Source: a virus
IMG/VR virus record: IMGVR_UViG_3300046777_002415
Location: 1-64,000 of that record
Strand: one strand, 5' to 3'
Length of the DNA stretch: 64,000 bases
The translations under genes and the position numbers were made by a program. This document shows, one piece after another, positions 4,801-34,300 of the stretch. Every line of letters begins with the position of its first letter. Within the stretch, counting starts at the first letter, position 1. The notes below the pieces were generated by a model. It worked only from the letters and a program-made list of their open reading frames with translations. It ran no database searches and was not told the DNA's origin.

Positions 4801-4817
4801 ACCAACGAGAGATCACC

Positions 4818-6001: not shown

Positions 6002-6252
6002 ACGAGATCCCTGACACCACTTGGCTGGAGCGCGTCAAGATCGAGGCCGAGGAACTCGAGACCAAGGTCAACAAGCTCGGCGCCTTCATCGAGGGCGAGG
6101 CCTACCGGGCGCTCAATATGGACCATAGGGTCGTGCTGGGCACCCAGCTGATGGCCATGTGCTCGTACCTCGCCTGCCTGAAGCATCGGATGCTGCTGGC
6201 TGAACCCACCTCCACGGAAGGAGAAAACGATGACAACGACACAGGATGCTGA
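5998..6252 (+). CDS. crAss001_48-like small helical protein
   Basis: WLERVKIEAEELETKVNKLGAFI...QLMAMCSYLACLKHR pattern. Confidence 0.65.
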   Translation: MNEIPDTTWLERVKIEAEELETKVNKLGAFIEGEAYRALNMDHRVVLGTQLMAMCSYLACLKHRMLLAEPTSTEGENDDNDTGC

Positions 6253-6796
6253 CAAGAGCCTAACCCCGCTCCTCGACTCTCTCTACACCAACCGGGATTA
6301 CACGACCCGGGAGGGCACGGTGCGGGCCATTCTGGCCGAGTGCGATCGGCAAGGCCTGACGCTCGACACCCAGAAGGCCTACGTGCTGGCCACGGTCCAG
6401 CATGAGACCAACAACACCTTCAAGCCGGTATTCGAGGCCTACTTCCTGAAGAACCCGCTGAAGTACCTGCGGAAGCTGCGGTATGCCCCCTACTGGGGTC
6501 GCGGGTTCGTCCAGCTGACCTGGAAGGCCAACTACGCCAAGTACTCCGAGCTGCTCGGCATCGATCTGGTGAAGAACCCGGAAAGGGCCTCGGAGCCGGC
6601 GATTGCCTGTTTCGTCCTAGTCCACGGGTTCCGCACCGGCGCCTTCACCGGCAAGCGGCTGAAGGATTACATCCGGGCTGACAAGTACGACCCGGTCGGC
6701 GCCCGTCGCTGCATTAACGGCACCGACGCGGCCCGGAAGATCGCCGGCATTTCTGACTGGTGGGTCAACCGCCTGCGGAGCCGGGATGACATCTGA
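6230..6796 (+). CDS. Endolysin, glycoside hydrolase family 19
   Basis: AYVLATVQHET, YWGRGFVQLTWKANY and ARRCING motifs. Confidence 0.9.
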   Translation: MTTTQDADKSLTPLLDSLYTNRDYTTREGTVRAILAECDRQGLTLDTQKAYVLATVQHETNNTFKPVFEAYFLKNPLKYLRKLRYAPYWGRGFVQLTWKANYAKYSELLGIDLVKNPERASEPAIACFVLVHGFRTGAFTGKRLKDYIRADKYDPVGARRCINGTDAARKIAGISDWWVNRLRSRDDI

Positions 6797-6974
6797 GATT
6801 ACCCCGCTCTGCAACGGCATCCAGTGGCACAAGGACACCGAGTGGCAGCGATGCCCGAAGGCGTCCAGCTGCCTGCGCTATATCCGGCGCATGGACGACC
6901 GGGCGCATGCGGTCGACAAGCTCTGCAACACCGTGGAGTTCGAGCACTATTTGGAGGCACCGAATGCGACCTAG
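6786..6974 (+). CDS. Small Cys-containing hypothetical protein
   Basis: Overlaps endolysin stop; four Cys. Confidence 0.5.
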   Translation: MTSEITPLCNGIQWHKDTEWQRCPKASSCLRYIRRMDDRAHAVDKLCNTVEFEHYLEAPNAT

Positions 6975-7146
6975 ATTTTTACGTGGCGGTATCCCGAAGG
7001 ATGCCAGAGGAAGAATGGAACCGACCGAGTTTGATGAGTACGACCAAGAGGTCCTGGACGAGTTTGTGAAGGGCGTGAAGACCGTGGCCCTGCTGGTCGT
7101 GGGCATGGTACTGGTGATTGCCGGGGTGGCTGGGAAGTGGGCATGA
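6964..7146 (+). CDS. Small membrane protein (C-terminal TM)
   Basis: GGAGG RBS before ATG 6964; TVALLVVGMVLVIAGV. Confidence 0.55.
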   Translation: MRPRFLRGGIPKDARGRMEPTEFDEYDQEVLDEFVKGVKTVALLVVGMVLVIAGVAGKWA

Positions 7147-7397
7147 GGTTCGCCTTTCTGCTGCTGCTGGCCGGCTGCACCCCTGCGGTTCAAGTCAACC
7201 ACGAGGTCCCTCAATTGGACAAGGCCGGCGAGGCGATCAAGAAGATCGTCGTAGCGGGCTGCCAGCCCACGAAGTACGCCATGAAGCCGATTCCCCAGGA
7301 CGTCGAAATCAACATCAAAGGTGACAAGGTGGAGGCCAACGACGGCGGCGTCGAACTCCTCAGGGAGTATGTCACCGCCCGCAAACTACTGAGGTAA
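7143..7397 (+). CDS. Lipoprotein, o-spanin candidate
   Basis: MRFAFLLLLAG|C lipobox in lysis cassette. Confidence 0.7.
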   Translation: MRFAFLLLLAGCTPAVQVNHEVPQLDKAGEAIKKIVVAGCQPTKYAMKPIPQDVEINIKGDKVEANDGGVELLREYVTARKLLR

Positions 7398-7401
7398 GAC
7401 C

Positions 7402-7608
7402 ATGTTTTCAGTGAGGCAGAAGAGGGAAATCGCGGATGCTGTTCAGCAGATTCTGCGGGACACGAACCATCCGGAACTCCCTGAAGGGGAGATCCAGTTC
7501 CACCTCCACGTAGATGGCGCGGAGTCATGGAGTTGGGCTGACATCCGGAACAATGGCGCCGTCGAGGCGCCGGCAGTCAACCCGTGGAACGAGGCCCAGG
7601 ATAAATGA
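7402..7608 (+). CDS. Hypothetical protein
   Basis: GAGGT RBS; 68 aa. Confidence 0.65.
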   Translation: MFSVRQKREIADAVQQILRDTNHPELPEGEIQFHLHVDGAESWSWADIRNNGAVEAPAVNPWNEAQDK

Positions 7609-7697
7609 CCCCGGCACTGATCGGCATGCTGATCTACGCGATCATGATCGGACTGACAGTGGTGTTCATGCTCGGCAGGAAGGAGGACGACCATTGA
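7605..7697 (+). CDS. Small single-TM peptide (30 aa)
   Basis: ATGA overlap; MTPALIGMLIYAIMIGLTVVFMLGRKEDDH. Confidence 0.55.
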   Translation: MTPALIGMLIYAIMIGLTVVFMLGRKEDDH

Positions 7698-7887
7698 CCA
7701 CCACCGCTGCGCTGTTCTTGCTGCTCTCCTCTTGGCGACCGCCGCGGCCACGTCACTGAGTGGGTGTGCGATTAAAAGCTGCAAGATTCGTCCGGCCTTG
7801 GCCGGCTCTATTTGGCTGGGCGGGGCTGAGGAGATCGATGAGGCGAATATGGAAAGGCTACGGATGCACCTGATATGCGAATTCTGA
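7693..7887 (+). CDS. Putative lipoprotein with ATT start
   Basis: AAGGAGG 6 nt before ATT; AVLAALLLATAAATSLSG|C lipobox; fills the gap to next gene. Confidence 0.5.
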   Translation: MDHHRCAVLAALLLATAAATSLSGCAIKSCKIRPALAGSIWLGGAEEIDEANMERLRMHLICEF

Positions 7888-7893
7888 GGACTC

Positions 7894-10091: not shown

Positions 10092-10104
10092 TTCTCGTTA
10101 CACT
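10076..10104 (+). promoter_or_regulatory. Late-region promoter
   Basis: TTCCAA-N17-TACACT; CTTCCAAAGCTG-N10-GTTACACT also at 17523-17552. Confidence 0.65.
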
Positions 10105-10129
10105 GCACCAAACCTAATACAGGACGATC

Positions 10130-11620
10130 ATGGCAAGGAAGCCAACCCCCAAAAAGAGCTCGGCTGAGCAGGCCACAGTCCTGCCGCGTTCGCTTGTCGT
10201 CGGCATTCAGACCGTCGACAACTCGACCGGGAAAGGCAAAGACTTCCCGCTTACCGACAGTTCGCTTGTCGTCTTTAACAAGTCGATTGCGGATGTCCGG
10301 ACCCAGTCCAATATCTTCGATGCGCTGCGGTTGCTGCGGAGGATCTCCGGCGATACCGCCACGGCCATCGCCTCCTACGTTAGGCTGGCCAACACCCCAT
10401 TGAGCTTCAAGGTCTACGACGCTGCGCATCAGCTGTCCGACGAGGGCAGCACGCTCATCAAGAGCATTCTGAACAGCCTAGAGAATCTTTCAGATTACAC
10501 CTACGGCTTCGACGACCGACAAGGCATGAAAGGCCTGGTCGACACCCTACTGAACGAAGAGCTGCTGACCGGGGCCATCGGCCTCGAACTGGTCCTGGAT
10601 AAGCAGCGGTTGCCGTTCAAGCTGCAGCCTGTGTCCCCAGCGAAATTGAAGTGGCGGATCGGCAAGACCAGCACCGGAAAATCGAACACCAAGATCGTCC
10701 CCTACCAGCAGGCGCAGGGCGAGGAGGTCGTTCTCGACATCCCGACCTTCTTCTACGCGGCACTGGACTCTGATCCGACCGCAACCTACCCGAAGCCGAT
10801 GCTGGAATCCGCGGTCAATGCCGCCGTCTTCCATGCCGAGACCATCGAGGATATCCGCCGGGTCGTGAAGCGTTCCGGCCACAGCCGGTTGATCATGAAA
10901 CTGGCGACCGAGGAGCTGTTGAAGGCAGCGCCCCCTGAAGTGCGCGTTGACGCCCAGAAGCTCGCCGAGTGGATGGAGCAGACCCGGACAGATTTGGTCA
11001 CGGCGGTGGAGAATCTCAGCCCGGAATCGGCCCTGGTGCTGTTCGACACCGTCGAGGCCGACTACCTCAACTCCGAGATCGGAGCTTCCGCCGACTATTC
11101 TGCCTTCATGGAGATGATCGACGGGATTGAGGCCACCGCGCTGCGGACCCCTCCGTCGGTGCTGGGCAAGCGCATGGGCGGGTCCCAGAACGTCAGCTCG
11201 ACCGAGTCCTTACTGTTCATCAAGCAGGCCGCTGGGCTGCACACCCCGCTGATCGAAGTGTTGTCGAAGGCCATGACGCTGGCCCTCCGGCTGTATGGTT
11301 TCGACGGCTACTGCCAGGCTGAATTCGCAGCGATCGATCTCCGGCCGGAGTCCGAGCTGGAAGCATTTCGTACCATGGCCCAACAGCGCATCCTCGAGCT
11401 GCTATCTCTTGGCTTCGTCACTGACCAGGAAGCGGCTGAGATGCTCGGTACAGGTATGCGGGCGCCCGGGGCCCCACCACTGTCCGGGACATTTTTCCAA
11501 AAAGCTGACGCCAGCAAAGACCCTACAGGCATGACCCCTGCATCTTCTACTACCGGAGATCCAGGTAAACGGGCGCTGACCGGTAATGCCCCTAGCAAAG
11601 CAGGAGGCAGCAGCCAATGA
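10130..11620 (+). CDS. Portal protein
   Basis: 496 aa between TerL and protease; portal-like size and composition. Confidence 0.8.
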   Translation: MARKPTPKKSSAEQATVLPRSLVVGIQTVDNSTGKGKDFPLTDSSLVVFNKSIADVRTQSNIFDALRLLRRISGDTATAIASYVRLANTPLSFKVYDAAHQLSDEGSTLIKSILNSLENLSDYTYGFDDRQGMKGLVDTLLNEELLTGAIGLELVLDKQRLPFKLQPVSPAKLKWRIGKTSTGKSNTKIVPYQQAQGEEVVLDIPTFFYAALDSDPTATYPKPMLESAVNAAVFHAETIEDIRRVVKRSGHSRLIMKLATEELLKAAPPEVRVDAQKLAEWMEQTRTDLVTAVENLSPESALVLFDTVEADYLNSEIGASADYSAFMEMIDGIEATALRTPPSVLGKRMGGSQNVSSTESLLFIKQAAGLHTPLIEVLSKAMTLALRLYGFDGYCQAEFAAIDLRPESELEAFRTMAQQRILELLSLGFVTDQEAAEMLGTGMRAPGAPPLSGTFFQKADASKDPTGMTPASSTTGDPGKRALTGNAPSKAGGSSQ

Positions 11621-12041: not shown

Positions 12042-12222
12042 ATCATGGCGCTGCGAGGTATGTCGGCAGCACATCGATCCGAGGGAATTCCGAGCAGATC
12101 CCGGCAGGCAGATTTGCGAATACTGCTGGTTATTTGCGCCGGAAGACTTGACAAATTGTTGCGACAGTAATAACAACACTGATACACTTCCTGTAACACC
12201 AACGCAAGGACAGCGTTCATGA
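12001..12222 (+). CDS. TraR/DksA-type C4 zinc-finger protein
   Basis: CEVCRQHIDPREFRADPGRQICEYC matches the C-x2-C-x17-C-x2-C spacing. Confidence 0.6.
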   Translation: MDLLRDPLLRTPLESWRCEVCRQHIDPREFRADPGRQICEYCWLFAPEDLTNCCDSNNNTDTLPVTPTQGQRS

Positions 12223-13613: not shown

Positions 13614-13631
13614 CGAACACGGAGGTTCGAA

Positions 13632-14105: not shown

Positions 14106-14128
14106 CAACTGAACACGGAGGTTCTACA

Positions 14129-15316: not shown

Positions 15317-15338
15317 TAGATACTGAGTATCTTCTACG

Positions 15339-15365: not shown

Positions 15366-15367
15366 CC

Positions 15368-15429: not shown

Positions 15430-17535
15430 ATGTCTTTAGTTGATTTTTTAGGCAAGTGCCAGAAGAAGTACGGGGAGCTTTACGACTACAGCGCCGTGGA
15501 GTACAAGAACAGCCAGTCCCCCGTGACCATCATCTGCAGGACACACGGTCCATTTCAGATGCGGCCAGCAGCGCATCTGCATAAACAAGGGTGCCCGACA
15601 TGCGGTCGGGAAAGATCAGCCAGTTTGCGGAGGACTAGCGTAGCTTCCTTTGTAGAGAGGGCGAGCACGATACACAAAGGGGAGTATGACTACAGCCAGG
15701 TAATCCAACCACCGGACAACAAGACCAAGGTCACTATCATCTGCAAAAAACACGGTGCTTTCGCACAGAGCTTTAACGCTCACTTGGGAGGCACAGGGTG
15801 CCCGGGTTGCGGTGCGGAGAGGGCGGCAGGGAGCAGGAGATCCAACTTCGTTGAATTTTTGGAGAAGGCCAGAAAGGTTCACGGAGACAAGTATGATTAC
15901 TCTCTGACCGAATACAAAGGTTCGGAGACCAAGGTAAAAATCCGCTGTAAGGCATGTGACTCCTTATTTGAGCAAGCCCCGCATAATCACATCAACCAAA
16001 AACAAGGATGCCCAGATTGTGGCAGGCGCAGTAGTGAACGTAGTCGTCGCAAGGACCAGGATAAGTTTATTTCCGAGGCCGTGGCCATCCACGGAGATAC
16101 GTACATCTACGACTTAGTTCAGTACGAGGGGGCCAACAACAATGTAACCATCATTTGTAGGGAGCATGGTGAGTTTCTACAGCGCCCTGCCCAACACCTG
16201 AAAGGGCAAGGCTGCCGGAAATGCGGGATCACCCGTAGGACCCAAGCGAGCCGCAACACTACCGAGTGGTTTACTGCAGAGGCCAGAAAGGTTCATGGAG
16301 ATAGGTTTGACTACACAAACACCACATACACCACCTCCGCGGACAAGGTTACGTATATCTGCGAGGACCACGGGGAGGTAACCGTGCTGCCATACGACCA
16401 CCTCAAAGGGATAGGCTGCCCTACGTGCTCTCATACCTTGGCAGGGGAAAGGAGGCGCACGAGTTTCCGGGAATTCATGGTCAAGGCATTTGCCATTCAC
16501 GAAGGTAGGTACAGCTATATCGAAGATGGCTTCATCGACAGCAAGACGCCCGCCAACATCCTTTGTCACGTACACGGGGTGTTTCAGCAGCAACCCAATA
16601 GCCATCTAGGTGGCCACGGCTGCAAAGCATGCAGCGGGTCTAATGGCGAGAACTCAATGGCGGAGTTTCTATGGCACCTCGGCGTCAACGTCGTGCGATG
16701 GGACAGAACCATCCTTGATGGGTTCGAACTCGATTTCTACCTACCAGACCAGAATCTGGCGATCGAGTACAACGGTCTGCGATATCACAGTTCTTGGGCA
16801 GATGAACACCGTGGCAGGGACTGGGTTCGGAATCACCAGAAATGGAAGCAGGAACAATGCGCGAAGAAAGGTATTCGGCTACTCCACTATTACGAGGATG
16901 AGTGGATCAACCGTAGAGCAGCGGTCACCAAACAGTTGTCCCTCGCGCTTGGCCGCTACGACGGGCCGAGGCACTACGCAAGGCAAACCAAGACCACATG
17001 GCTGCCCTGGGCAGACGCCAAGGACTTCATGGACCTCCACCACTTGCAGGGTGCCCCCATGCAGGGTACGAGTTACGGGCTGGAAGTCGACGACAAGATC
17101 GTGGCAGTGATGATCTTTGCGGCGATCACATCCAAGCGAGGGGAGAAGGCATGTCCATCCAAATGGGAACTGGTTCGGTACGCCAGCGATGGCCAAGTAG
17201 TTGGAGGGGCCTCCAAGCTGCTGGCCGCGTTCGTAAAGCACCACCCGGAAGCCAGGGAGGTCGTCAGCTACTCTGATAACCGCTGGGCCAGCGGAGACGT
17301 ATACCGCAGGCTGGGCTTTACCGAGGACTCTCAAGTCCCCGTGGATTACATGTATATCAAGACCAGCACGGTCGAGCGGTTCCACAAATCCAACTTCCGC
17401 CGATCCGCCCTCGCCAAGAAGTACCCGGACCAATTCGACCCCGCCCTTTCCGAGCGCGAGAACTGCCACAAGCTGGGCTTCTATCAGATCTTCAATTGCG
17501 GCCTCACCAAATGGGTTCGCCACTTCCAAAGCTGA
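15430..17535 (+). CDS. Free-standing Hef-like homing endonuclease: six Zn-binding repeats + PD-(D/E)xK/Vsr-like nuclease + GNAT/Mom-like C-terminal domain
   Basis: Six ~69-aa repeats CxxH/C...H..G.GCPxC; ELDFYLPDQNLAIEYNGLRYHS; WELVRYA...GGASKLL...SYSDNRWASGDVYRRLGF. Confidence 0.8.
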   Translation: MSLVDFLGKCQKKYGELYDYSAVEYKNSQSPVTIICRTHGPFQMRPAAHLHKQGCPTCGRERSASLRRTSVASFVERASTIHKGEYDYSQVIQPPDNKTKVTIICKKHGAFAQSFNAHLGGTGCPGCGAERAAGSRRSNFVEFLEKARKVHGDKYDYSLTEYKGSETKVKIRCKACDSLFEQAPHNHINQKQGCPDCGRRSSERSRRKDQDKFISEAVAIHGDTYIYDLVQYEGANNNVTIICREHGEFLQRPAQHLKGQGCRKCGITRRTQASRNTTEWFTAEARKVHGDRFDYTNTTYTTSADKVTYICEDHGEVTVLPYDHLKGIGCPTCSHTLAGERRRTSFREFMVKAFAIHEGRYSYIEDGFIDSKTPANILCHVHGVFQQQPNSHLGGHGCKACSGSNGENSMAEFLWHLGVNVVRWDRTILDGFELDFYLPDQNLAIEYNGLRYHSSWADEHRGRDWVRNHQKWKQEQCAKKGIRLLHYYEDEWINRRAAVTKQLSLALGRYDGPRHYARQTKTTWLPWADAKDFMDLHHLQGAPMQGTSYGLEVDDKIVAVMIFAAITSKRGEKACPSKWELVRYASDGQVVGGASKLLAAFVKHHPEAREVVSYSDNRWASGDVYRRLGFTEDSQVPVDYMYIKTSTVERFHKSNFRRSALAKKYPDQFDPALSERENCHKLGFYQIFNCGLTKWVRHFQS

Positions 17536-17552: not shown

Positions 17553-17588
17553 TTGTAGCAGGAATTTATCAACACAAGGATCTGTGTT

Positions 17589-17876
17589 ATGGCCAGAATG
17601 CGCCGACTCCCCGATTTTCAAGAACCTCAGGTCCCGTCCACTCCCGTGGTGGGCGAAGGCGACCGGCTATCCGTTAGCGGCCAAGTGCAAGTGACCGAGG
17701 CATCCGCTGCCCCCAAAGTGGAGGTCAGCAAACCCCTTCTCATCGAGGCCATCAAGTCCAGCCTCCTCGAGCCGCACGAGCTGATCTGGTTTCACCCCGG
17801 CAAACCCAAAGAGGTTGCCCGCATCACCAAGTGGATGCAGGCCCAGATCAATGCGGGATTGCTGAGGCAGGTCTAA
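17589..17876 (+). CDS. Hypothetical virion-associated protein
   Basis: 95-aa ORF after promoter. Confidence 0.7.
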   Translation: MARMRRLPDFQEPQVPSTPVVGEGDRLSVSGQVQVTEASAAPKVEVSKPLLIEAIKSSLLEPHELIWFHPGKPKEVARITKWMQAQINAGLLRQV

Positions 17877-18245
17877 ATGCAGACCCTGCCTCCCTTCAAG
17901 CGCGGCGACACCTTCAGCCTCGGCTGTCTGGCTAAGGATGCCGGAGGTGTTCCAGAGGATCTGTCCAACATCACCCTGAGAGCACAGATCCGCCGCCAAG
18001 GCACCCGCCTGGCGCCGGAGCCGGTGTTCGTCGCGGAGCTGACGGTCGACAAGGCCAACCAATCCACCCACAAGGGTGAGTTCTCACTGACGGCGCTGCC
18101 GGCGGTAACCAAGCTGTGGCAGAGCGGTCTGGAGGCTACCCCGGTTATGCACGTCGTGGATATCCAGAAAGACGTCGCAGGCGTCGTTATCAGCTCCGAG
18201 ACCTTCGCGGTACCGGTGATCAAGGATGTCACCTATGACGATTGA
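17877..18245 (+). CDS. Fibre-anchoring / BppU-like structural protein
   Basis: FKRGDTFSL...DLSNITLRAQIR...DIQ...SSETF pattern. Confidence 0.65.
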   Translation: MQTLPPFKRGDTFSLGCLAKDAGGVPEDLSNITLRAQIRRQGTRLAPEPVFVAELTVDKANQSTHKGEFSLTALPAVTKLWQSGLEATPVMHVVDIQKDVAGVVISSETFAVPVIKDVTYDD

Positions 18246-20379
18246 AATCACATCTCTGTATGGCCCGGGCACTGCTCCCACCATAACCCTGCAATCTCAG
18301 GACGCTGGAGGAGCGATCGCCGCTCGTGCCGCGGCCGAGGCGGCAAAGACCAGCGCGGCTGCTGCACTGGCCAGCGAGGTGGCAGCAGAAGCAGATCGAA
18401 TGCAGACCGGGCTCGACCGGGTACAGACCGGTCAGGACCGGCAGGTCACGAGTGCGGATGCCACCGCGACCTCTCAGGACCGGGTACAGACAGGGCAGGA
18501 CCGCACCGCCACTGCCGCTGACCGGATACAGACCGGGCAGGACCGAAGCACTTCGACTTCGGCAGCTACTGTAGCCACAACCCAGGCAGGCATTGCTGTC
18601 AGCCAAGCCCAGGCAGCCGCGATTTCTGCCGGTGACGCTGCGGACAGCGCTGACTCCTCGATTGCTGCCGCCGAAGTGTCTGTCGCTAAAGCTGCGATTG
18701 CCACGCAGAAGGCAGCGGATGCATCGAACTTCGCACAGTCAGCTGAAACATCCAAGAATACGGCCCAGTCTCACGCTCAGACTGCGACCACGCAGGCAGG
18801 GATCGCCACCACGAAAGCTGGGGAAGCGAGCACTTCGGCCACAACTGCCAGCACACAGGCAGGAGCTGCCACAACCAAAGCTAATCAAGCGGGTTCATCC
18901 GCCGACGCTGCGTCAGCCAGCGCCACAGTGGCCACTGACCAAGCAGCCATAGCCACTGCCAAGGCCGCTGTAGCCACGACCAAAGCGAGCGAGGCCAGCG
19001 GCTCTGCATCCACAGCAACGACCAAGGCCGGGGAAGCTCTGTCTTCCGCCAATGCCGCCAGCGCTTCGGCAACTACCGCAACCACCGAGGCGGGGGAGGC
19101 ATCAGCATCGGCTGTCACGGCCAGCACCCAAGCAGGGACTGCCACAACCAAAGCGTCGGAGGCCAGCGCATCCGCCCTCAGTGCCAGCAGTAGCGCCCAG
19201 ACGGCAGTAACTCAAGCCAATACAGCGACAACCAAGGCGAGTGAAGCCGCCGCGTCTGCATCAGGTGCTGCTACCTCCGCATCCACCGCAACAACTCAGG
19301 CCGGTATCGCCACAACCAAGGCGAGCGAGGCTAGTGCCTCCGCATCCACCGCAACGACCCAGGCCGGCACCGCCACAACCAAAGCAGGGGAAGCATCTGC
19401 CAGCGCATCTGCTGCCAGTGGCAGTGCAGTGGCTGCTGCGGCTTCTGCAGACAGCGCGGCGGCAAGCGCCAGCACCGCCCAGGGCGTAATCAACGACCCT
19501 GATTTCGGGCTTGTCGTAGCGGGGCTGGAAGCCTTGGCCATCTCGGGCGAGATACAGACGGTCGCGGCCAATATAACGGACATACAGAACGCAGAAGAGA
19601 ATGCTGCCACTGCAGTCCTGAACGCAAGCATATCCGGTGTGCAGGCCGGTAATGCCATTGTTTCGGCGCAGGCCGCGCAGGCCGCCGCTGCCAATGCTGT
19701 TGCGGTTGTCACCGGAGGAACAGCCTCACTGACTCCGAGCGCGGGGAAAATCCCGATCGCCGACGCCACAGGCAAGATCGACTATGGGTGGGTTGACCCC
19801 ATCCCCGCTGTTGCCGCGAACCTCCACCGGTCCCCGAACGCCATCACGTCGATGTTCATTTATGACACCAGCAAAGCGTCAGACGGCGGGGCATTCATCG
19901 ACAAATTGGGTGCTACGTCCATCGTCAATGAAACGCTGAATGGCAAATGGTTGGGACAGCAAGCCAATGAATCGGCGGCTCGGGCAGTATCCGGTGCAGC
20001 CACGGGCGATTTTTATCAACTCACGTCAGACGGCAAGGTCTACAAGCTCAACGCAGGCTCTGGCGTCACCCAGGTTTACCGCGGCAACTCCGCCAAATGG
20101 CCGCGATTGATGGCGTTCGTCGCGGAATCCCTTGGACTATTCATCTACGACTTGACCCAGGCGGGTCGCCCGTTGTTTCGACACTTCCCGGTCGGCGCCA
20201 ATGAGATTGTGATCGCCACCCCCACCAGCGTTCAGGCGCTGGAATCCACTATCGCTATCGGCACGGCCAGCGGCTTGATCCTGATGGACTTTGCGCGGGA
20301 CGTTGCGAAAAAACTGACTACCGGCACCGATCAGGCATACAAGGGCTTTCTGGCTAAAGCCACCGCTGGATGGGCGTGA
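18235..20379 (+). CDS. Tail fibre, N-terminal part (Stf-like Ala/Thr/Ser repeats)
   Basis: DRVQTGQ and ATTKAGEASASA repeats, then globular region truncated at HNH. Confidence 0.8.
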   Translation: MTIEITSLYGPGTAPTITLQSQDAGGAIAARAAAEAAKTSAAAALASEVAAEADRMQTGLDRVQTGQDRQVTSADATATSQDRVQTGQDRTATAADRIQTGQDRSTSTSAATVATTQAGIAVSQAQAAAISAGDAADSADSSIAAAEVSVAKAAIATQKAADASNFAQSAETSKNTAQSHAQTATTQAGIATTKAGEASTSATTASTQAGAATTKANQAGSSADAASASATVATDQAAIATAKAAVATTKASEASGSASTATTKAGEALSSANAASASATTATTEAGEASASAVTASTQAGTATTKASEASASALSASSSAQTAVTQANTATTKASEAAASASGAATSASTATTQAGIATTKASEASASASTATTQAGTATTKAGEASASASAASGSAVAAAASADSAAASASTAQGVINDPDFGLVVAGLEALAISGEIQTVAANITDIQNAEENAATAVLNASISGVQAGNAIVSAQAAQAAAANAVAVVTGGTASLTPSAGKIPIADATGKIDYGWVDPIPAVAANLHRSPNAITSMFIYDTSKASDGGAFIDKLGATSIVNETLNGKWLGQQANESAARAVSGAATGDFYQLTSDGKVYKLNAGSGVTQVYRGNSAKWPRLMAFVAESLGLFIYDLTQAGRPLFRHFPVGANEIVIATPTSVQALESTIAIGTASGLILMDFARDVAKKLTTGTDQAYKGFLAKATAGWA

Positions 20380-21116
20380 TGGGAGTCTCTCTAAGCCACG
20401 AAATCGTTGCCGCTTACCAAAGCGGTCTGTCGATGCACGAATGCGCTAGGCGCTTCGGAATGTCACGCACGTCATTGTCGTACCGGCTAAAGAAGGCGGG
20501 AATCCGCATCAAGCAGAAGGCAGAGGTTATTGCCGAGCAATATGCCGACGCACCGTGGCGCAACAAAGACCAGATGCTTGATCTGTACGAGCGCCAAGGC
20601 AAATCAACGATTGAAATCGCCGAAATGTTTGGGTGCGACAGGTCAGTTGTGACTGACTGGCTGAATCGCTTTGGCGCAACCATGCGGACCACTGCCGAAA
20701 CTCAAAAAGGCAAAGAGCCCGCCACAAAAGGCAAAGGCAAGCGGAACAGTACCGAGACCGTGCTGTGTGCTTGTGGCTGCGGCACATCCATTAAGCGGTA
20801 CAGCTTCAGTAGCAGCGAGGTGCGGTTTGCCAGCGGTCATCGGATACATGGTGCCGATCACCCACGGTACAAGCCGAATGGCGGCAGACGGACGGACAGG
20901 CATGACAGGGCCGATTACCGAGTTTGGCGCAGAGAGGTTCTTGCCGCAAACAGCTATACCTGCGCCGTGTGCGGGGTTAAGGGTGGAAAACTGCATTCGC
21001 ACCATGTGCTGCCGTTTTCAAAATTCCCACAATACAGGTACGAAGTCACCAATGGTCTGGCCATGTGTAAACCCTACCATATCGAAACACACAAAGTTGC
21101 CAGGGAGATCATGTAA
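20379..21116 (+). CDS. HNH homing endonuclease with N-terminal HTHs
   Basis: CAVCG...LHSHHVLPFS...VTNGLAMCKPYH; two HTH units; CACGCG; TGATG and TAATG overlaps (alternative start 20370). Confidence 0.85.
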   Translation: MGVSLSHEIVAAYQSGLSMHECARRFGMSRTSLSYRLKKAGIRIKQKAEVIAEQYADAPWRNKDQMLDLYERQGKSTIEIAEMFGCDRSVVTDWLNRFGATMRTTAETQKGKEPATKGKGKRNSTETVLCACGCGTSIKRYSFSSSEVRFASGHRIHGADHPRYKPNGGRRTDRHDRADYRVWRREVLAANSYTCAVCGVKGGKLHSHHVLPFSKFPQYRYEVTNGLAMCKPYHIETHKVAREIM

Positions 21117-24100
21117 TGCCTATAGTAAACAACACCGTCAACGCCGTCGCCATGACCATCCTCCCCGACGCGCCGGTTGATCCTGTTACCGGATTGAAGG
21201 TGCCGACGATTGCGGTGGCTACGGGCGGGGGAATTTCGGTTATCAAGCATAATGGGACGGTAGTTAATAGCAGTAGCACACTACAATACAATGCTGTTTT
21301 GTTTGCGGATAAACAGTATTTGTGCTCTGCCTACCAGCAATACGTTTACTTAACGCCTCGGTCAGTGTGGGAGCAGTCTGGATTCACGATCTCCAGTGGT
21401 GGGTATTACGACTCTAGCTTCCAATCACCACTAAGTATTCTTAGTGCAACCGGATCAACTACTGTTAGGCGTTTTGCGCGTGGCGATTCTCAATTTATTG
21501 TGCAAAGAGACAAGGGGGCGCAGATTCTAAAACGCCATAACACTACCACCAAGGCGACGGCAGCAGAAATTACCAACACCCACAACACCGGCCACCTCGT
21601 CGGTGACATCCGCCGCTGCTTTTTGGCCGACATCGGATCGGGGAGTGTGACGGGACCGGAGTTGGTGACGAACGGGGATTTCTCGAATGAGACGACGGGG
21701 TGGACTGCTGGGTCCGCGACTATGGCTGTTGTCGGTGGGCGACTGCAAATCACCAATACGGGCACAGTGTTTGGCAAAGCGTATCAATCGTTTGCGACAA
21801 CAATCGGCGGTTCCTATCGCTTGTCATTCAGCGCAGGGCCGGTGACAGCATCTGCGGCGGCTGTATATGCGTCTGTAGATACGACATCCAGCGGAAGTAT
21901 AGGGGTTATAAGTAGCATAACGACTTACGGAAACCGTGAATTTATTTTTAGAGCGACAACCACAACCACTTATGTCCTGCTGATCAATACCAATACTAAC
22001 AACGGCATTGGCGAATACGACAACATCTCCGTCCGCGAAGTCATCCCCGACCGCTCCTACAAGGCCCAAAGCGCGAACATTGTTGGCACCCTGACCAAAA
22101 CCGCTGCTGCTGTTAATGCTCAGATGGCAGCGTACTCCGGGTTCTCGGCGGCGAACTACGCAAGGGAGCCGTACAGTGCCGATCTCGATTTCGGCACGGG
22201 CGAGTGGACCGCGAGTGCGTGGGTGAATGTGCTTGTTGGGAACTTCCCGGTGGTTGGGGGTGAGCTTCTTACCGGCACATTCACCAACGGTTCACCGGGA
22301 TTCGATACGTTTTCACCGAGCGGCACGACGGAATTTACCGGCACAACAACAACGGCAAAATCCGCTCGTTGCTACATAGGTAATTTGTCTGCATTTGTCG
22401 GTAAAATAATTACAATATCAGGAACAGTATCATCAAGCGGGATATCAGCCGTGTCAATGAATTTCTCATCGGCTGGCTCGCAAAGCTCAGGATTAACTAG
22501 CGGATGGGTTATTACAGCAAACGGGAATTTCACCACTACCGTATATGTTCCGGTCAACGCTTCTAATCTGTTGATTCTAGGAACGTCAACTGGCGTTTCG
22601 ACCATGACGCTATCCAATCTATCCGTCAAAGAGCTTGCCCCCGCCCTCATCGCTGACCGTGCCTTCTCCACTGGCCCCAAGATCAGTCTCGGTGTTAGCG
22701 CCTTGGGCAATCTCACCGCCACTGCTTTCGACGGCACCACCACCCGCACGGTTACGACAAGCGCCGCTTACAACACCGGGACTTGGAACAAAGCTCGGGT
22801 CAACTACACCACGGACGGCACCCTGGCGCTGTTGGTGAATGGCGTGGAAGTAGCGGCGACTCGGGGTAATCCGCTGTTGAGTTTGAGTAGTAGGTATAAC
22901 TTACTGAATTACTCAGAGCAGTTCGATAACGGCGCATGGACAAAAGGAACTAATGTCACAGTCATTCCCAATTCAGCGACAGACCCTCTTGGTGGTAGTA
23001 CGGCTGACAAAATTTCCGTTTCATCGAGTTTAGACTCAAGTGCTACTCGCATTTCTCAGGCTGTAAATGTAGGCGGCGATCTTGTATTTTCGGTATGGCT
23101 TCGGGCTGCGACAGCCCAGACCGTAAGACTAAAAATCTTTGGGACAACAGGAACCGTCGTCATTAGCTCACTTGATGTTTCAGTTACGTCAAGCTGGACT
23201 AGGTTTTCTATAACAGGGGTGGGCGCTGTTCCCAACAGTACCGTGACCATAGGACCAGCGATTTCCGTGCTAACAGATATAGAGGTCTGGGGCGCTCAAG
23301 TTGAGGTTGGTTCCACTGCCAAAACCTACCAGCACACCACCACGGTAGCCGAAACAGAGGTTGCCCCTCTCACTATCGGCAACAGCTACGCCCTCGATGC
23401 GCCGTTCCCCGGTTCGCTGGCCTTGCTGAAGTTCTCCGCGACCGTTCCCACCACCGAGCAATCGGTCTGGATGTACGAGCAGGAGAAGCAACTTTTCCGC
23501 GAGGGTGCTCAGTGTGTTCTCCCCGACTCCGGGAATATCCTCGACCTGACCTACGACGACGCGACCGACAAGTGGATCGCGGTGTCTGCGACCAATGAGA
23601 GCGAATGGTCGGGTCTGGTTCGCACCTCGACGGCTACGCCAAGCGCGGGTTCGTTCAGCAAGACCGTAGCCAAGTCAGGTGTGCAGTTGCTGGCTCGGAC
23701 CACGACCAACCCCGGTGTCGATGTGATGATCCCTGCCTATGGTCTGCGGTCGGAACTGGTGAGACGGGCCGAGGCTGCGGCATTGCTGAATGCCCAACTG
23801 GCGACCTTCGATTTCGTTGGCGGGTTCACGGCGACCACGGTAGCTGGCAACACAGCGATCACCAGTGTGGCGGGCCTGACTTATCCGACCTCCTACATCG
23901 GCGCAGTCGTCACGGGTTCAGGTATTCCGGCCAACACCGTCATCGTCGCGGTATCGGGCACGACCATCTACCTGAGTGCGGCGGCGACCGCCAGTGCATC
24001 CGGCGTACAGGTGAGCTTCACTGACTTCATTCTGCCAGTGGGTTATGAGGCTAGTACGGTCGCCGCCGCAGGCACCAGAAGACGTGAAGGGTCCACCGCC

Positions 24101-24202
24101 GATTTTGTCCGCCGATTCGACGGCTTCAAGGAGACGATCCGCTTTGCAGTCGCCCCCGGCCATACCGCATGGGTATCCATTCAAGCAGCCAGGAGCGCGT
24201 AA
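21116..24202 (+). CDS. Tail fibre / receptor-binding protein, C-terminal part (LamG and carbohydrate-binding-like modules)
   Basis: ELVTNGDFS, NLLNYSEQFDN...VWGAQVE and LDFGTGEWTASAWV modules. Confidence 0.8.
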   Translation: MPIVNNTVNAVAMTILPDAPVDPVTGLKVPTIAVATGGGISVIKHNGTVVNSSSTLQYNAVLFADKQYLCSAYQQYVYLTPRSVWEQSGFTISSGGYYDSSFQSPLSILSATGSTTVRRFARGDSQFIVQRDKGAQILKRHNTTTKATAAEITNTHNTGHLVGDIRRCFLADIGSGSVTGPELVTNGDFSNETTGWTAGSATMAVVGGRLQITNTGTVFGKAYQSFATTIGGSYRLSFSAGPVTASAAAVYASVDTTSSGSIGVISSITTYGNREFIFRATTTTTYVLLINTNTNNGIGEYDNISVREVIPDRSYKAQSANIVGTLTKTAAAVNAQMAAYSGFSAANYAREPYSADLDFGTGEWTASAWVNVLVGNFPVVGGELLTGTFTNGSPGFDTFSPSGTTEFTGTTTTAKSARCYIGNLSAFVGKIITISGTVSSSGISAVSMNFSSAGSQSSGLTSGWVITANGNFTTTVYVPVNASNLLILGTSTGVSTMTLSNLSVKELAPALIADRAFSTGPKISLGVSALGNLTATAFDGTTTRTVTTSAAYNTGTWNKARVNYTTDGTLALLVNGVEVAATRGNPLLSLSSRYNLLNYSEQFDNGAWTKGTNVTVIPNSATDPLGGSTADKISVSSSLDSSATRISQAVNVGGDLVFSVWLRAATAQTVRLKIFGTTGTVVISSLDVSVTSSWTRFSITGVGAVPNSTVTIGPAISVLTDIEVWGAQVEVGSTAKTYQHTTTVAETEVAPLTIGNSYALDAPFPGSLALLKFSATVPTTEQSVWMYEQEKQLFREGAQCVLPDSGNILDLTYDDATDKWIAVSATNESEWSGLVRTSTATPSAGSFSKTVAKSGVQLLARTTTNPGVDVMIPAYGLRSELVRRAEAAALLNAQLATFDFVGGFTATTVAGNTAITSVAGLTYPTSYIGAVVTGSGIPANTVIVAVSGTTIYLSAAATASASGVQVSFTDFILPVGYEASTVAAAGTRRREGSTADFVRRFDGFKETIRFAVAPGHTAWVSIQAARSA

Positions 24203-25064: not shown

Positions 25065-25067
25065 CCT

Positions 25068-26712: not shown

Positions 26713-26714
26713 CC

Positions 26715-27242: not shown

Positions 27243-27279
27243 TGTAGACTGTCGCAATACCGCTACACGGACGTAAGCG

Positions 27280-29762: not shown

Positions 29763-29820
29763 GACAGTTGTAACATCAGAACTGGAAATTTCCTTCAACC
29801 ACCATGGATAGGTACTAACT

Positions 29821-30675
29821 ATGGCATCACTAGGCGCCGCAAAAACCGGCAAGTTCGCGATCGGCACTGCAGAATTGCGTGTCGGACCCCTCACCCTGGC
29901 TGGCAAGCTGAACCGTAAGCACGGTGTCGGTCTTATCGATTCCGCCACCCTCAACGTCGAGCAGACATCTGTCGACCTGAAGGGCGGCTTCCCCCAGGTC
30001 ATCATGGACACCCAGGTCACCGACCAGTCTGCCCAGATCACTGCAACCCTCCGCGAGTTCTCTCGCCGGAACTTGGGTATCTTATTGGGTCAAGGTCTCG
30101 TCTACGACGATTCCAACGATACCAATGATGCCGTCACGGCCACTACCGCTTCATATACCGCAGGCGGAGCCAGCCTGGCTGTACCCGCAGGTGCCATCGG
30201 TGCTGGGGACACCCAGTTTGCAGGTGCTCCCTGGATTTCAGTGTGGAATCCGGCTGACGCAGCCGAGTCCGTCATCTCCAAAGTCTCCTCCTGCGCTGGA
30301 ACCACTCTGACTCTCGACTCGGAATTTCTCATTCCCGTTGACATGCCGTCAGGGGCTAAGGTCAGCAAGCTGGTACCTATCTCCGTCGGTAACGTCAGCC
30401 AGGTGCAGTATTTCTCCGCTCAGCTGATTACCATCGACCGCCAATCCGGACGTCCGAAGATTTCGAACTTCTGGAAGTTGGCTATCGGTTCCGGCATGTC
30501 TCTGGCCAACAATGCCACTGACTTCGCCTCGACCGAAATGGTGTTGAAGGTCTTGCAGCCGTCGCTGGCGGACTACGAAAAGGTAGGGTCCCCGCTGTAC
30601 CACCTGCGCAACATCATCGGCGCCTACCCGATGGGCATGATGGGCGAAGTCTCCGACGAGTCCATCGCCGCGTAA
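29821..30675 (+). CDS. Major tail tube protein
   Basis: Own promoter-like TTGCAA-N17-TAACAT upstream, terminator downstream, precedes chaperone and TMP. Confidence 0.75.
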   Translation: MASLGAAKTGKFAIGTAELRVGPLTLAGKLNRKHGVGLIDSATLNVEQTSVDLKGGFPQVIMDTQVTDQSAQITATLREFSRRNLGILLGQGLVYDDSNDTNDAVTATTASYTAGGASLAVPAGAIGAGDTQFAGAPWISVWNPADAAESVISKVSSCAGTTLTLDSEFLIPVDMPSGAKVSKLVPISVGNVSQVQYFSAQLITIDRQSGRPKISNFWKLAIGSGMSLANNATDFASTEMVLKVLQPSLADYEKVGSPLYHLRNIIGAYPMGMMGEVSDESIAA

Positions 30676-30696
30676 ACCAGTACATCTGGTCCTCCC

Positions 30697-30725
30697 AAAA
30701 GGCCCGCCTCGTGCGGGCCTTTTTA
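30697..30725 (+). terminator. Intrinsic terminator
   Basis: AAAAGGCCCGC-CTCGT-GCGGGCCTTTTT. Confidence 0.9.
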
Positions 30726-30740
30726 TTACTGGAGCATGGA

Positions 30741-31304
30741 ATGCTCGAAAAATTCATCGAACTCCCCGCTGACCTCCCGGCCCTCCCGCTGTCCTTCGGC
30801 CTTGAGGCTCTGATCGCCGAGAGGATCGGCCAAGACGGCCATATCTCGGCCCAGACCATTGCCGAATGTGCCCTTCGACTTTGGCCGGAAAAGGTGGTAC
30901 AACAGCATCTCGAAGACCTGTCTGCCCGATTCATCCAGCGCGTCGAGCGCATGGCGAAATCCCGGGAAGAGCCCGACAAGGGTAAAGGGTCCGAGAACCC
31001 CAAACGGAACTTGGGCGCCAACCTTCAAGAATGGACGCAATCTCTCGATCATACGGGCCTCTGCCTGTATCTGGCCGATTACGACCCCGAGCGGGCACAC
31101 CGCTTGTACTGGCGGGTCGAAGCGGATCTCCTCGAGCTGACGCTCCACGCGAAGCTGCGATTCGAGTCCACCAAACATCTCAATGCCCATGAGGCCGCGC
31201 TCTACGGTTTCGGGGGCAGCTATGCCGACGACGGCGAAGAAGGAACTTCTGTATCCGGGGAACTGGATGCGGGCGCTTTGAAAGATTTCGGTATCAACTT
31301 CTGA
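30741..31304 (+). CDS. Tail assembly chaperone candidate
   Basis: Between tube and TMP; GGAG RBS before ATG 30741. Confidence 0.6.
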   Translation: MLEKFIELPADLPALPLSFGLEALIAERIGQDGHISAQTIAECALRLWPEKVVQQHLEDLSARFIQRVERMAKSREEPDKGKGSENPKRNLGANLQEWTQSLDHTGLCLYLADYDPERAHRLYWRVEADLLELTLHAKLRFESTKHLNAHEAALYGFGGSYADDGEEGTSVSGELDAGALKDFGINF

Positions 31305-31316
31305 CGGAGGCCAAGG

Positions 31317-34300
31317 ATGGCTACTTCTCTACCCAATGAACAGATTGAGATTGGTATTGACCTGCTGCTTGGTAAGGTCAACGACAAGCAACTCGCCAAA
31401 GGCCTCAGTGATCTTGCCAACCGGGTCAGCGAAATTGCGGCCAAGACGTCGTATGACCCTACCGTCAAGGTCGACATAAAACTGGGGGACGAGAAGAAGA
31501 TCAACCAGAGTGTCGCCAAGGCGACTAAGACGATCAATGACGCCCTCAAGGACCTAGCCCCAGATAGCGAGGACGCCGGAAAGACGGTTGATGCTTACCG
31601 AGAATACTTTCACAAGTTAGAGCGAGCCCTCTCGGTCAACACGGCGGAGTACAGCAAGACCGTCCAGGCTAATTACGAGGCGCTAGCGTCAGGTAATGAC
31701 CGAGTGCTGCGTAAACTTGGTGATAAGGAATTGGCCGCCGCTGTTCGCTACGGTAACGCCTCGAATCTTCGTAATAAGTTGCTCAAGCAGGCACTGGATT
31801 CCTCCGCGTCAATCTTCAACCGGGTAGGCAAGGAAGGTATCCCAGTAAAGCCGGTAGCTGTCGATGCTCTCGATACCGAGCTCAAGAAGCAAGCCGACAA
31901 GTACAGGAACTTCAACAGGTTCATCAAGGACTCGAATGTAGAGGCTCGTGTTCAAGCTGTTGAAAATCGCAGGTACCGCCAAGACCTAATCAAGAAAACC
32001 CAGAAACGCAATATCGAGAGGCTGGGGGAGGACTTCAACTTCTCAGGTGTCCAGCGAGCATACCGTAAAGAGATCGGTGACCTGCTCCGAGATCAGGAAT
32101 CTGCTCCCCTGAAGGGAAAAAGAGGGCTACTGAGCAAGGACCAGATCGGCAAGCAGGTTCAGACCCTGGAAGGCGAGCTTAAAGCTGTCCAGGGGCGATA
32201 CAAAATCCTGTTCGGCAGCACCCTTCAGGATAGTGCCAGAGCCGCCGAGGCTGGGTCTACTCAGGCTGAAATCAGATACAACAAGGCGAAGGAGCAGATC
32301 GGCAAGGCAGGGCTGCAGACTACGGAGAGGAAAGTCGCTGAAACCCTTGCCCAGAAGGAGCTGACCACGGCCCTGAACGGGGCGTATCAAGTTCTGAAGA
32401 AGCTGGCCCCACTTGGCGAAAAGGAAAGCAAGGACGCACAGGATCGGGTCGAACGTCTACTGAGTGAGAAAGAGGCCCTTGGCAAGCTGGTCTCTGCTCG
32501 CAGGGATGATGCCCGGCTTCGCAACCAACGAAACACCCTCGAGGTCAACGCCGCCAAGTCGGATGAGCGTGAGCAAAAGCGTGTCCGTAACCAACGAAAC
32601 ACCCTCGAGGTCAACGCCGCCAAGTCGGATGAGCGTGAGCAAAAGCGTGTCCGTAACCAACGAAACACCCTCGAGGTACAGGCTGCCAAACGGGAAGAAC
32701 AAGAGAAGATTCGGACCAGAAGGGGCACCAATCAGCTCGAGGTACAGGCTGCCAAACGGGAAGAACAAAGTAGGCAAAGAGGCCTCAACCAGCGGAACGC
32801 GATTGACGTCCGCATGGACAAGGCCGGCTTCTCCCCCGACAACATCGCCAGCCTCAGAGAGCGGGTAGGCGCCCTTGGGTACCGCAAAGGCACCATCTCC
32901 GAGACCTTGAAGGGCATGGTCGCCTCCAACGCTCTCGGCGTTGATGGTGCCGTCGCGGACCTGCAGATACTAAAGACGAAGCTCCTCGACGTGTCCCGGG
33001 CTGCCAAGGATTCTGGCATCCCGAAACTCGAATCTGAGTTCAAGGGGCTGGCCAATGCCGTTGGCAAGGCTGTCGGGCAGGTCAACAAATTCGACAAGCG
33101 CCCGCCGGCCGAAGACTTCGACGCCCAAGTACGCGCCTACCGGACGCGCCAGGCCCGCATCGAGGCCCTCGGCACCGCCAGGGACGCCCTGTTCACCCAG
33201 GTGTCTTCCCTCCGGTCCATGATGAGTAACGCCCAGACCGAGGGCGACATCAAGACGCTGCGGATCCTGCTGGCGGAAGCGCTTACCGATGTTCGCCGCC
33301 TGGGAACAGAGTCCAAAAAGCTGGGCTTCGAAGAAGGCATTGATTCAGCCCGTCGCCTGAAGAAGGAGATCTCCGAGGTTGGGGATGCCTCCAAAACCAC
33401 GCTCAAGGAGATCAAAGGCCCAACTGCTGCTGAACTCCGCCGCGCTGAGAAGGAGCGCATACGCGCAGCCCTGATCGCTCAAGGCGAAGAGGCCTTTGCG
33501 GCCGTCGGTGGCATACGCAACTATGCCAAAATCGGCGAAGGGGATTACCACGCGGCCCAAGCGTACGCTGCCTATACCCGTGACACGATCGACAAGAGAA
33601 GGCCAGATATTGTCAACGATCCTAACCTCACGGAGGTTCAGCGATCGAAGGCGCTCAAGGACCTGAGCAAGGAGTTCAACACCGCCAGCAAGGCTGCCAA
33701 CTATCTGCAGGCTGAGATCAACGGCAACGTCGGCGCCCTCCGTCAAATTCAGCTCGCCGCCCGCAATTTCGCCCGTTACTTCATCGTCTACGGTGGGCTG
33801 TATCAGGTCGTCGGTTACTTTCAGCAGCTCGCCCGCACCCTAGTCGACTTCCAGGACTCCCTGAAATCCACGCAGGTTATCGCCCAGGCCACCGGCCGGG
33901 ATATGGCCGGTATTGGGGAGGCGATTCGCAGTGTGGCCTCGGAGTCTGGTGACTCCCTGCGAAATGTGGCAGCCGCGGCTGAAACGCTCGCGCAGGCCGG
34001 CACCTCAGTCAAGGATATTCCTGCCGCCCTCAAGGCCGTCTCCGACTTTGCATTGGCGACCGGCAGCAGCATGCAGGTGGCTGCTGACATTATCACCTCG
34101 GCCAAGGAGATATTCGGAGAGGATCTGACCTTCGCCGGGGCGGCTGACCAGCTGACCCGCGCAGTCAATATCTCCAAGCTGCGGGCTGAGGATCTCAGAA
34201 CCATCTTCAACCTTGGCGCCCAGACGGCCCAGTCCTCTGGTCTGTCCTCGGCTCAGTTCCTCGGTGCGTCCGCGACCTTGTCGAATCTGGGTATCAAGAG

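Follow-up and report, generated by a model that had tools for sequence, protein, structure and literature searches.

The stretch of DNA analysed here, referred to as the window, comprises the first 64 kb (64,000 nucleotides, nt) of the 79.5-kb IMG/VR record IMGVR_UViG_3300046777_002415, a linear, 92% complete siphophage genome from freshwater metagenomes. Lysis, packaging, head, and tail genes make up a late block on the + strand (4187-49097), which is followed by an early/replication block on the − strand (49213-79464 in record coordinates). The subject of this report is a set of small hairpins that display GGA in their loops at the start sites of late genes. An earlier note, made from the letters alone, had described such hairpins at no fewer than 11 late genes and proposed them as operators for CsrA/RsmA, through which the virion and lysis genes would be repressed together. 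CsrA globally regulates carbon flow, motility, and biofilm formation. The hairpin strings that it quoted are all present in the DNA at their positions (14/14), and the features concerned are as follows:

6210-6223, + strand: endolysin (PHROG 181; ATG 6230), CTCC-ACGGAA-GGAG, canonical ANGGAN hexaloop on 4 base pairs (bp)
10131-10144, + strand: portal (PHROG; ATG 10130), TGGC-AAGGAA-GCCA, canonical hexaloop over codons 1-5
12201-12217, + strand: head protease (PHROG; ATG 12219), AACGC-AAGGACA-GCGTT, 5 bp with a 7-nt loop
13023-13034, + strand: proposed nested scaffold (candidate internal start 13035), GGC-ACGGAC-GCT, 3 bp including one G-U pair, sequence CACGGACG
13614-13629, + strand: decoration protein (ATG 13632), CGAAC-ACGGAG-GTTCG, canonical hexaloop on 5 bp
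14111-14124, + strand: major capsid (PHROG; ATG 14129), GAAC-ACGGAG-GTTC, canonical hexaloop on 4 bp
17571-17588, + strand: gene 17589, AACACA-AGGATC-TGTGTT, 6 bp, loop without the N position, abutting the ATG
18215-18233, + strand: fibre gene (likely start ATG 18235), GGTGA-T-C-AAGGAT-G-TCACC, containing CAAGGATG
27261-27279, + strand: adaptor, CGCTAC-ACGGAC-GTAAGCG, 3+3 bp with a bulge, containing CACGGACG
29801-29813, + strand: tail tube, ACC-ATGGATA-GGT, 3 bp only
30732-30746, + strand: chaperone palindrome GAGCAT-GGA-ATGCTC, 6 bp with a 3-nt loop, over ATG 30741 and 3′ of the terminator at 30697-30727
31309-31322, + strand: tape measure (PHROG; 3010 amino acids; ATG 31317), GCCA-AGGA-TGGC, over the ATG

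The ribosome-binding site lies within a hairpin at the endolysin, portal, head protease, decoration, and major capsid genes, and gene 17589, the fibre gene, and the tape measure are probably members of the same set. The 3′ ends of the hairpins are found 0-6 nt upstream of the ATG, or the hairpin covers the ATG; the portal hairpin of the window is positioned after it. The 3′ arm of the endolysin hairpin supplies the Shine-Dalgarno sequence with its GGAG. The constant part of the element is the loop, A-N-GGA-N, and the stems differ by site and covary, but some sites share a longer sequence, namely ACACGGAGGU (decoration and capsid), CAAGGAUG (fibre and tape measure), and CACGGACG (adaptor and scaffold). 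Of 41 non-redundant sites, 27 are closed by a C-G pair and 9 by U-A. Stability is low (median −4.1 kcal/mol), and such marginal stability suits a structure that is stabilised by a bound protein. A covariance model, R1, which has four training sites in the window, scores the endolysin site, one of these four, at 19.6 bits, the decoration site at 20.8 bits, and the tape-measure hairpin at 12.6 bits, and its scan of the window gave no site at an expectation value (E) <0.05 beyond the four training sites.

The chance level of such hairpins was estimated from 1,337 sense-strand GGAs inside genes, each GGA being required to lie within a loop of 3-10 nt. A Watson-Crick stem of at least 4 bp surrounds 13% of them and one of at least 5 bp 3%, and these figures rise to 38-41% and 16-18%, respectively, when G-U pairs are allowed, so that stems of 3 bp or with G-U pairs (scaffold, tail tube, first portal site, second protease site) are uninformative. 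Taken singly, the nested scaffold, the tail tube, the portal site CAGGACG, which has no stem, and the second protease site are at chance level, and about half of the quoted sites are no better than chance. The figure of at least 11 late genes was an over-count, of which about four canonical and about five variant sites stand and the remainder falls away.

For the comparison of late with early genes, hand curation gave 42 late and 47 early starts, whose flanks were shuffled 1000 times with every GGA and the start codon held fixed. A hairpin of at least 4 bp with GGA in a loop of 3-8 nt occurs at 9 of the 42 late starts (4.2 ± 1.8 expected, P=0.011) and at only 1 of the 47 early starts, which is a depletion (5.0 expected). 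With stems of at least 5 bp, four late starts (1.1 expected, P=0.024) and no early start (1.3 expected) are left. The A-N-GGA-N hexaloop on at least 4 bp is present at four late starts against 0.08 expected, a count reached in 0/1000 shuffles, and at none of the early starts (0.08 expected). Minimum free energy folds of positions −30 to +20 place GGA in a hairpin loop at 14/42 late and 6/47 early starts, and start regions taken as a whole fold no more strongly than their shuffles (z about 0). When stems are ignored, the context CANGGANG is found at 9/44 GGAs near late starts versus 32/804 elsewhere (odds ratio 6.2, P=1.2e-4), a 5-6 fold enrichment, and shows no enrichment at early starts (3/57 versus 34/581). 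The late-versus-early contrast in start-site hairpins is real, and the remark of the earlier note that replication genes start with ordinary Shine-Dalgarno sequences also holds, GGAG being present at 36/39 anchored early sites and 14/28 anchored late ones. The early start type reads CCTTGGAGG.

A near-DNA search of the phage collection gave no close relative of the window, single-protein scans of viral and metagenome contigs gave no relative, and a profile scan of metagenome contigs returned relatives at 45% identity only. The capsid protein is 36-38% identical to that of Vibrio phage SHOU24 and its allies, and has homologs (P0003-P0012) at 81-92% identity whose contigs are not among the compared loci. 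The comparison set, collected with a profile of capsid homologs, consists of 80 IMG/VR loci and a prophage in Methylovulum miyakonense HT12, which is the same element as locus L007 and the 72.9-kb provirus G002. The part that is widely common among these relatives is the head module only, and the comparative tests leave out the endolysin, gene 17589, and fibre sites.

In the 80 loci (1.16 Mb), canonical hexaloop hairpins at the starts of open reading frames (ORFs) number 34 on the late strand versus 1 on the other. A clade formed by L003, L005/6, L007, L010, L011, L012, and L014 holds 31 of these 34 copies, and about 65 other relatives have no GGA-loop hairpins, among them the closest ones compared (77% capsid identity). 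The whole 72.9 kb of G002 contains six canonical copies, 6/6 in the structural module and 0 at early starts. The hairpins exist, exceed chance, and are specific to late genes and to the sense strand.

Decoration orthologs carry the hairpin just upstream of the start in L003, L005/6, L007, L010, L011, L012, L014, and L015. The loop is A-[C/U]-GGAG throughout (AAUGAG in L015), and the stems, eight besides that of the window (CGAAC), are CAAAAC, AGAC, AAGAC, TTAAGAC, AAGCC, TTCTAC, TCTAC, and AACC. Capsid orthologs have the stems GAACC/GGTTC, TTGAT/ATCAA, TCGAT/ATCGA, CGAT/ATCG, and AGTC/GACT, and protease orthologs the hairpins GGCA-GGA-TGCC, CGGCA-AGGA-TGCTG, TGGC-AGGAC-GCCA, ATCC-AAGGAT-GGAT, and CTTTC-ATTGAG-GAAAG. 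Canonical hairpins were also found at tail-tube orthologs in L006 (GTTTA-AAGGAA-TAAAC) and L012 (TCTAC-ATGGAG-GTAGA), the G002 tape-measure start has GGTAAA-AGGAG-TTTACC, and L003 shows the layout of the fibre site at two genes, ACAAGGATGT being followed by a second in-frame ATG. At the portal, five relatives (L005/6, L007, L010, L011) carry (T)GACA-CGGA-TGTC(A) just upstream of the ATG; this clade hairpin is invariant in sequence and sits at the same gene as the window's hairpin, in another position. In L007, L010, and L011, TATAAT-like −10 elements (gttgatataatc, gttggtatactacc, and gttgctataatcc) precede the portal hairpin and are suggestive of an internal promoter in the packaging/head operon there. 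A different arrangement is seen at the protease start of L001/L002, where a 7-bp hairpin, GTTTCAA...TTGAAAC, with a 13-nt loop lies between a GGAGG Shine-Dalgarno and the ATG and would bring the distant Shine-Dalgarno next to the start codon.

Covariation was examined at 27 decoration and capsid sites that were picked by protein homology rather than by pairing, loci without a hairpin being included. Pairing is found in 67% of cells versus 45% in shuffles, and the covariation score is 0.57 versus 0.21; neither observed value was reached in 500 shuffles (0/500 each), and sliding the structure by 1-3 columns lowers the score to 0.08-0.23. By these sequence comparisons, the hairpins are conserved at the starts of head genes, and at three of these genes (protease, decoration, capsid) stem changes compensate one another.

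Further relatives were seen in public freshwater and wastewater runs; the sequencing runs listed include no RNA dataset. In a relative diverged by about 10%, the protease hairpin is altered, among the changes listed, only at 12207 and 12211, which are the free loop positions N and X of the consensus. In runs X3-X5, the start of gene 17589 and its upstream region (17553-17740) are replaced by about 170 nt of unrelated sequence, and a contig of run X4 matches the window through 31322, the end of the tape-measure hairpin, and then diverges completely. It follows that mosaic junctions fall at gene starts.

GGA motifs are also concentrated in non-coding leaders, the first of which is:

4547-4817, + strand: non-coding leader at the head of the late block, between gene 4187-4546 and ATG 4818

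The density of A(N)GGA in the 79.5-kb genome peaks here, at 10 per 200 nt (mean 1.4; next-best interval 7), and no interval with at least 9 per 200 nt occurs in 2.3 Mb of relatives. Its codon score is negative, in keeping with its non-coding nature, and it folds better than shuffles (z = −2.56). No Rfam family matches at gathering score anywhere in the window, this leader included, and no alignable counterpart is found in the relatives; a GGA-rich interval of provirus G002 (32881) was considered as a counterpart and rejected, as it lies inside a 534-codon ORF. The leader could be a CsrA-regulated 5′ untranslated region or a sponge-like RNA. In L010, L007, and L006, each non-coding leader of the small terminase gene has four to six A-N-GGA motifs in tandem, and several of these motifs lie in hairpins.

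Other features of the late block are:

8340, + strand: start of the large terminase gene (PHROG)
15430-17535, + strand: HNH/homing-endonuclease gene (PHROG 559 and 8446 for this gene and that at 20379-21116), inside the structural block in a stretch of lower G+C
20379-21116, + strand: HNH/homing-endonuclease gene, between large fibre-like ORFs (18235-20379 and 21116-24202)
30697-30727, + strand: strong intrinsic terminator, AAAAGGCCCGC-CTCGT-GCGGGCCTTTT, directly 3′ of the tail-tube gene (29821-30675)
41653, + strand: start of the J-like fibre gene (PHROG)

A terminator-like hairpin also precedes the chaperone gene at orthologous positions in G002, L012, L021, and L080. Early starts share an extended context, CCTTGGAG(G), which is found at 6/47 of them and occurs 14 times on the − strand versus 5 times on the + strand:

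62118, 73310, 74032, 75021, 77397, and 78494 (record coordinates), − strand: early starts with the CCTTGGAG(G) context

The only late-block gene with this context is the HNH endonuclease gene at 15430 (+ strand), which suggests that early-type signals drive expression of this mobile gene. Besides the late GGA-loop hairpins, there is a distinct second family on the − strand at 72321-72348 of the record and 52374-52394 of the window; its stems are closed by CCGG and its loops contain CAGCA, as in cgccacccgg-ACAGCAAA-ccgggtggcg. Among the early genes, 51445-51972 (−) encodes the N-terminal domain of a MazZ-like dATP/dGTP diphosphohydrolase (PF18909, 83 bits), which may act in nucleotide modification or in control of the dNTP pool, although no PurZ-type adenylosuccinate synthetase was found in the 79.5-kb record, and 62247-62666 (−) encodes a TerB-domain protein (PF05099) with 47% identity in the Methylovulum provirus G002.

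With regard to the nature of the ligand, the high-affinity CsrA/RsmE site has been described as an ANGGAX hexaloop placed directly on a stem with a C-G closing pair (PMC4005645), and the consensus selected in vitro for RsmA/N is CANGGAYG in a hexaloop (bioRxiv 10.1101/2020.08.24.265819). The high-affinity form is matched by 4 window sites and by 31 start-associated sites in the clade relatives, and the hairpins overlap the Shine-Dalgarno sequence or the start codon, as CsrA/RsmA sites do. At three starts (window tape measure, L003 portal, L010 terminase), a separate Shine-Dalgarno (GGAGG, AGGAG, and GAGGA, respectively) lies in the 5′ arm, in the window only partly so, and the loop GGA abuts or overlaps the AUG. 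A loop GGA that touches the AUG cannot serve as the Shine-Dalgarno at these three starts and, together with the tandem hairpins of the leaders and the GGA-dense region 4547-4817, it argues for the GGA loop as a functional unit in its own right. That the ligand is a protein of the CsrA family and the hairpins are its operators is a tentative reading, to which we give somewhat less than even likelihood.

As for the source of such a protein, neither the 79.5-kb record (92% complete) nor provirus G002 yielded a CsrA gene (PF02599), so a phage homolog beyond the window, as the earlier note had considered, did not turn up. M. miyakonense, the host of L007/G002, encodes CsrA (91.5 bits); it is the host of a relative. 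No RNA-binding domain was detected in a Pfam scan of the conserved small proteins, which covered scanned proteins common to the window and G002. The only conserved protein of CsrA size, a 68-residue product of 52166-52372, was considered as a hidden phage CsrA and rejected, being strongly acidic. In the 4.7-Mb Methylovulum genome, an R1 scan that scored 150 of 575 candidates, and whose counts are lower bounds, gave at least 7 matches outside the prophage, 2 of those found lying at an ORF start; so few copies imply that the motif is not a general feature of host start sites.

We infer CsrA as the ligand, repression as its effect, and the presence of CsrA in the window phage's host. Briefly, dimers of a host-supplied, GGA-loop-binding protein of the CsrA/RsmA type would bind the hexaloop hairpins at the starts of the head-module, endolysin, and tape-measure genes, lock them, and thereby block loading of the 30S subunit and initiation. 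Synthesis of the head module would then be set by the amount of free CsrA in the cell. Derepression would come once the late transcripts, with several high-affinity sites each and the GGA-dense leader, exceed free CsrA, or alternatively when host sponge RNAs rise, and the abundant late mRNA and its leader would soak up CsrA in turn. In its full extent, this scheme has stray late transcripts kept silent, virion synthesis released by out-titration of CsrA or a rise of sponge RNAs, and the phage acting as a CsrA sponge that reprograms late host metabolism; we consider it doubtful as a whole. It is likewise rather doubtful that a clade of freshwater siphophages, the Methylovulum prophage among them, has its head/tail module wired to host Csr in this way.

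Several points weigh against a CsrA-type operator, apart from the lack of a csrA gene in the record and in G002 noted above. Single-site predictions of CsrA targets are prone to false positives, and the multi-site criteria in use call for at least three A(N)GGA, with pairs 10-60 nt apart (PMC4066749); by these criteria (PMC4066749), 6/42 late and 11/47 early starts qualify, with no late enrichment. The exceptions, with many A(N)GGA, are the leader 4547-4817 and the small-terminase leaders of relatives, and the latter could instead be cos/pac repeats acting at the DNA level. An A(N)GGA motif inherently overlaps with the Shine-Dalgarno sequence, and a C-G closing pair with G after GGA would also be selected by an extended GGAGG Shine-Dalgarno. 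Only about 9/42 late starts have a credible hairpin and most late genes lack one, so that joint repression of the virion and lysis genes is not supported in the breadth that had been claimed. Adaptor orthologs in at least 30 relatives, the clade included, lack such a hairpin and mostly have no GGA, which leaves the adaptor hairpin either window-specific or due to chance, and the chaperone palindrome was not seen at orthologous starts. L001/L002, at 77% capsid identity, have no GGA-loop hairpins but keep hairpins at their capsid and protease starts, with half of the GGA in the stem or the hairpin between the Shine-Dalgarno and the AUG; such differently registered hairpins hint at a function of the structure itself. 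In the 25 kb examined of Vibrio phage SHOU24, no such hairpin was found, and Vibrio has CsrA. On balance, the proposal of CsrA operators draws support from the late/early contrast, conservation, geometry, and the CsrA of the relative's host, and loses ground on breadth, on the multi-site pattern, and on the missing phage CsrA.

The most serious alternative is a cis-acting structural element of the start site that works without a dedicated protein, insulating the start, in the densely packed operons of late genes, from long-range pairing and showing the Shine-Dalgarno sequence in its loop. In a variant of it, the hairpin serves as a 5′ stabiliser after mRNA processing, and either way the outcome would be a high, fixed expression of head proteins. 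The hairpins do mark the virion genes of highest expression (capsid, decoration, protease/scaffold, portal), most sites use the loop GGA as Shine-Dalgarno at normal spacing, the stems are weak enough to be melted by the 30S subunit, and both the retained but GGA-free loops of L001/L002 and the missing gene for a cognate protein in the phage are as expected. This explanation leaves the A at loop position 1 unaccounted for when position 2 is C or U, where ACGGAG and AUGGAG break the contiguity with the anti-Shine-Dalgarno. It also does not account for the AUG-abutting loop GGAs with the true Shine-Dalgarno in the stem or for the tandem GGA hairpins of non-coding leaders, and the folding of start regions as a whole equals that of shuffles. 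Taken jointly, the element and its variant are unlikely.

The hairpins could also be operators for another RNA-binding protein, either encoded by the phage (a late regulator, or a structural protein that regulates its own synthesis) or from the host but distinct from CsrA. Conserved, covarying hairpins at start sites are typical of protein operators, and the restriction of the trait to one clade, with none in related phages whose host genus has CsrA, fits a phage-borne factor. In addition, stem sequences recur within genomes (two genes in L012, three in L003, decoration and capsid in the window), and the start-associated sequences of Cluster K phages recur likewise (PMC3203893). Opposed to this are the absence of an RNA-binding domain among the scanned proteins common to the window and G002 and the strongly acidic character of the sole conserved protein of CsrA size. 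No other family is known to recognise ANGGAN hexaloops, the literature consulted including PMC4005645 and bioRxiv 10.1101/2020.08.24.265819. Overall, a ligand of this sort appears quite improbable.

Finally, coincidence, by which Shine-Dalgarno GGAs flanked by short inverted repeats would have been picked by eye, has in its favour the background (13% of GGAs with a 4-bp Watson-Crick stem, 38% with G-U), the half of the quoted sites at that level, and the 4.2/42 expected under the loose criterion, but it is refuted for the core sites, for which it is extremely improbable, by the excess of canonical hexaloops (4 versus 0.08), the covariation at orthologous sites, and the strand/start bias of 34 versus 1 across 1.16 Mb, and it stands for the scaffold, tail tube, first portal, and second protease sites and probably for the adaptor.

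If the tentatively favoured CsrA does bind, virion production would be tied post-transcriptionally to the physiological state of the host, and late phage mRNA would rank with the strongest ligands that CsrA meets in the cell. Otherwise, the hairpins would still represent a conserved RNA motif of start sites, covarying at three of four head genes, and a late-gene counterpart of the mycobacteriophage start-associated sequences. The hairpins are directly testable, because one member of the clade is a prophage in a cultured strain, M. miyakonense HT12.

Small hairpins at start sites that tune the timing or amount of late proteins are familiar from phage translational operators such as the coat-protein hairpin of MS2/PP7, the RegA and gp32 operators of T4, and the Com-mom system of Mu. 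These operators occur at one or few sites per genome, have other loops, and bind a phage-encoded ligand. Our literature search turned up no description of virion genes whose start sites form CsrA-type operators, although phage csrA genes and effects on prophage induction have been described: about 1% of phages carry a csrA gene (PMC7366521), and CsrA affects prophage activation in Serratia (cited in PMC7366521).

The hairpins of the hcnA ribosome-binding site and the stem-loops of RsmZ, RsmY, and CsrB, which bind CsrA/RsmA/RsmE, resemble the phage hairpins in the ANGGAX hexaloop on a stem, the C-G closing pair, the CANGGAYG/CANGGANG context, the overlap with the Shine-Dalgarno or start, and the marginal stability. 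Unlike the known CsrA/Rsm targets, which are host mRNAs and sponge RNAs, the phage sites lie at virion-gene starts in polycistronic operons, and in contrast to the clusters of at least three sites in validated CsrA targets, they are mostly single. No gene for their putative cognate protein is found in the phage. The leader 4547-4817 and the small-terminase leaders of L010, L007, and L006 resemble the long CsrA-regulated leaders of pgaA and glgC and CsrB-type sponges in having many A(N)GGA at short intervals, a part of which lie in hairpin loops. Unlike curated sponge RNAs, the leader 4547-4817 matches no Rfam family.

The start-associated sequences (SAS) of Cluster K mycobacteriophages are a fixed 13-bp element, GGGATAGGAGCCC, whose function is unknown and for which a binding factor of the host or phage has been proposed (PMC3203893). 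Both SAS and the phage hairpins are repeated elements in which a Shine-Dalgarno core is held between short inverted ends a few nt upstream of starts, and both occur in one orientation, at a subset of genes, and are conserved across related phages. SAS have a fixed sequence with 3-bp symmetric ends and are restricted to non-structural genes, whereas the hairpins described here combine a constant loop with variable, covarying stems, lie at structural genes, and show no fixed consensus of the GGGATAGGAGCCC type. In form, the closest known elements are the CsrA/Rsm operators; in genomic behaviour, they are the Cluster K SAS.

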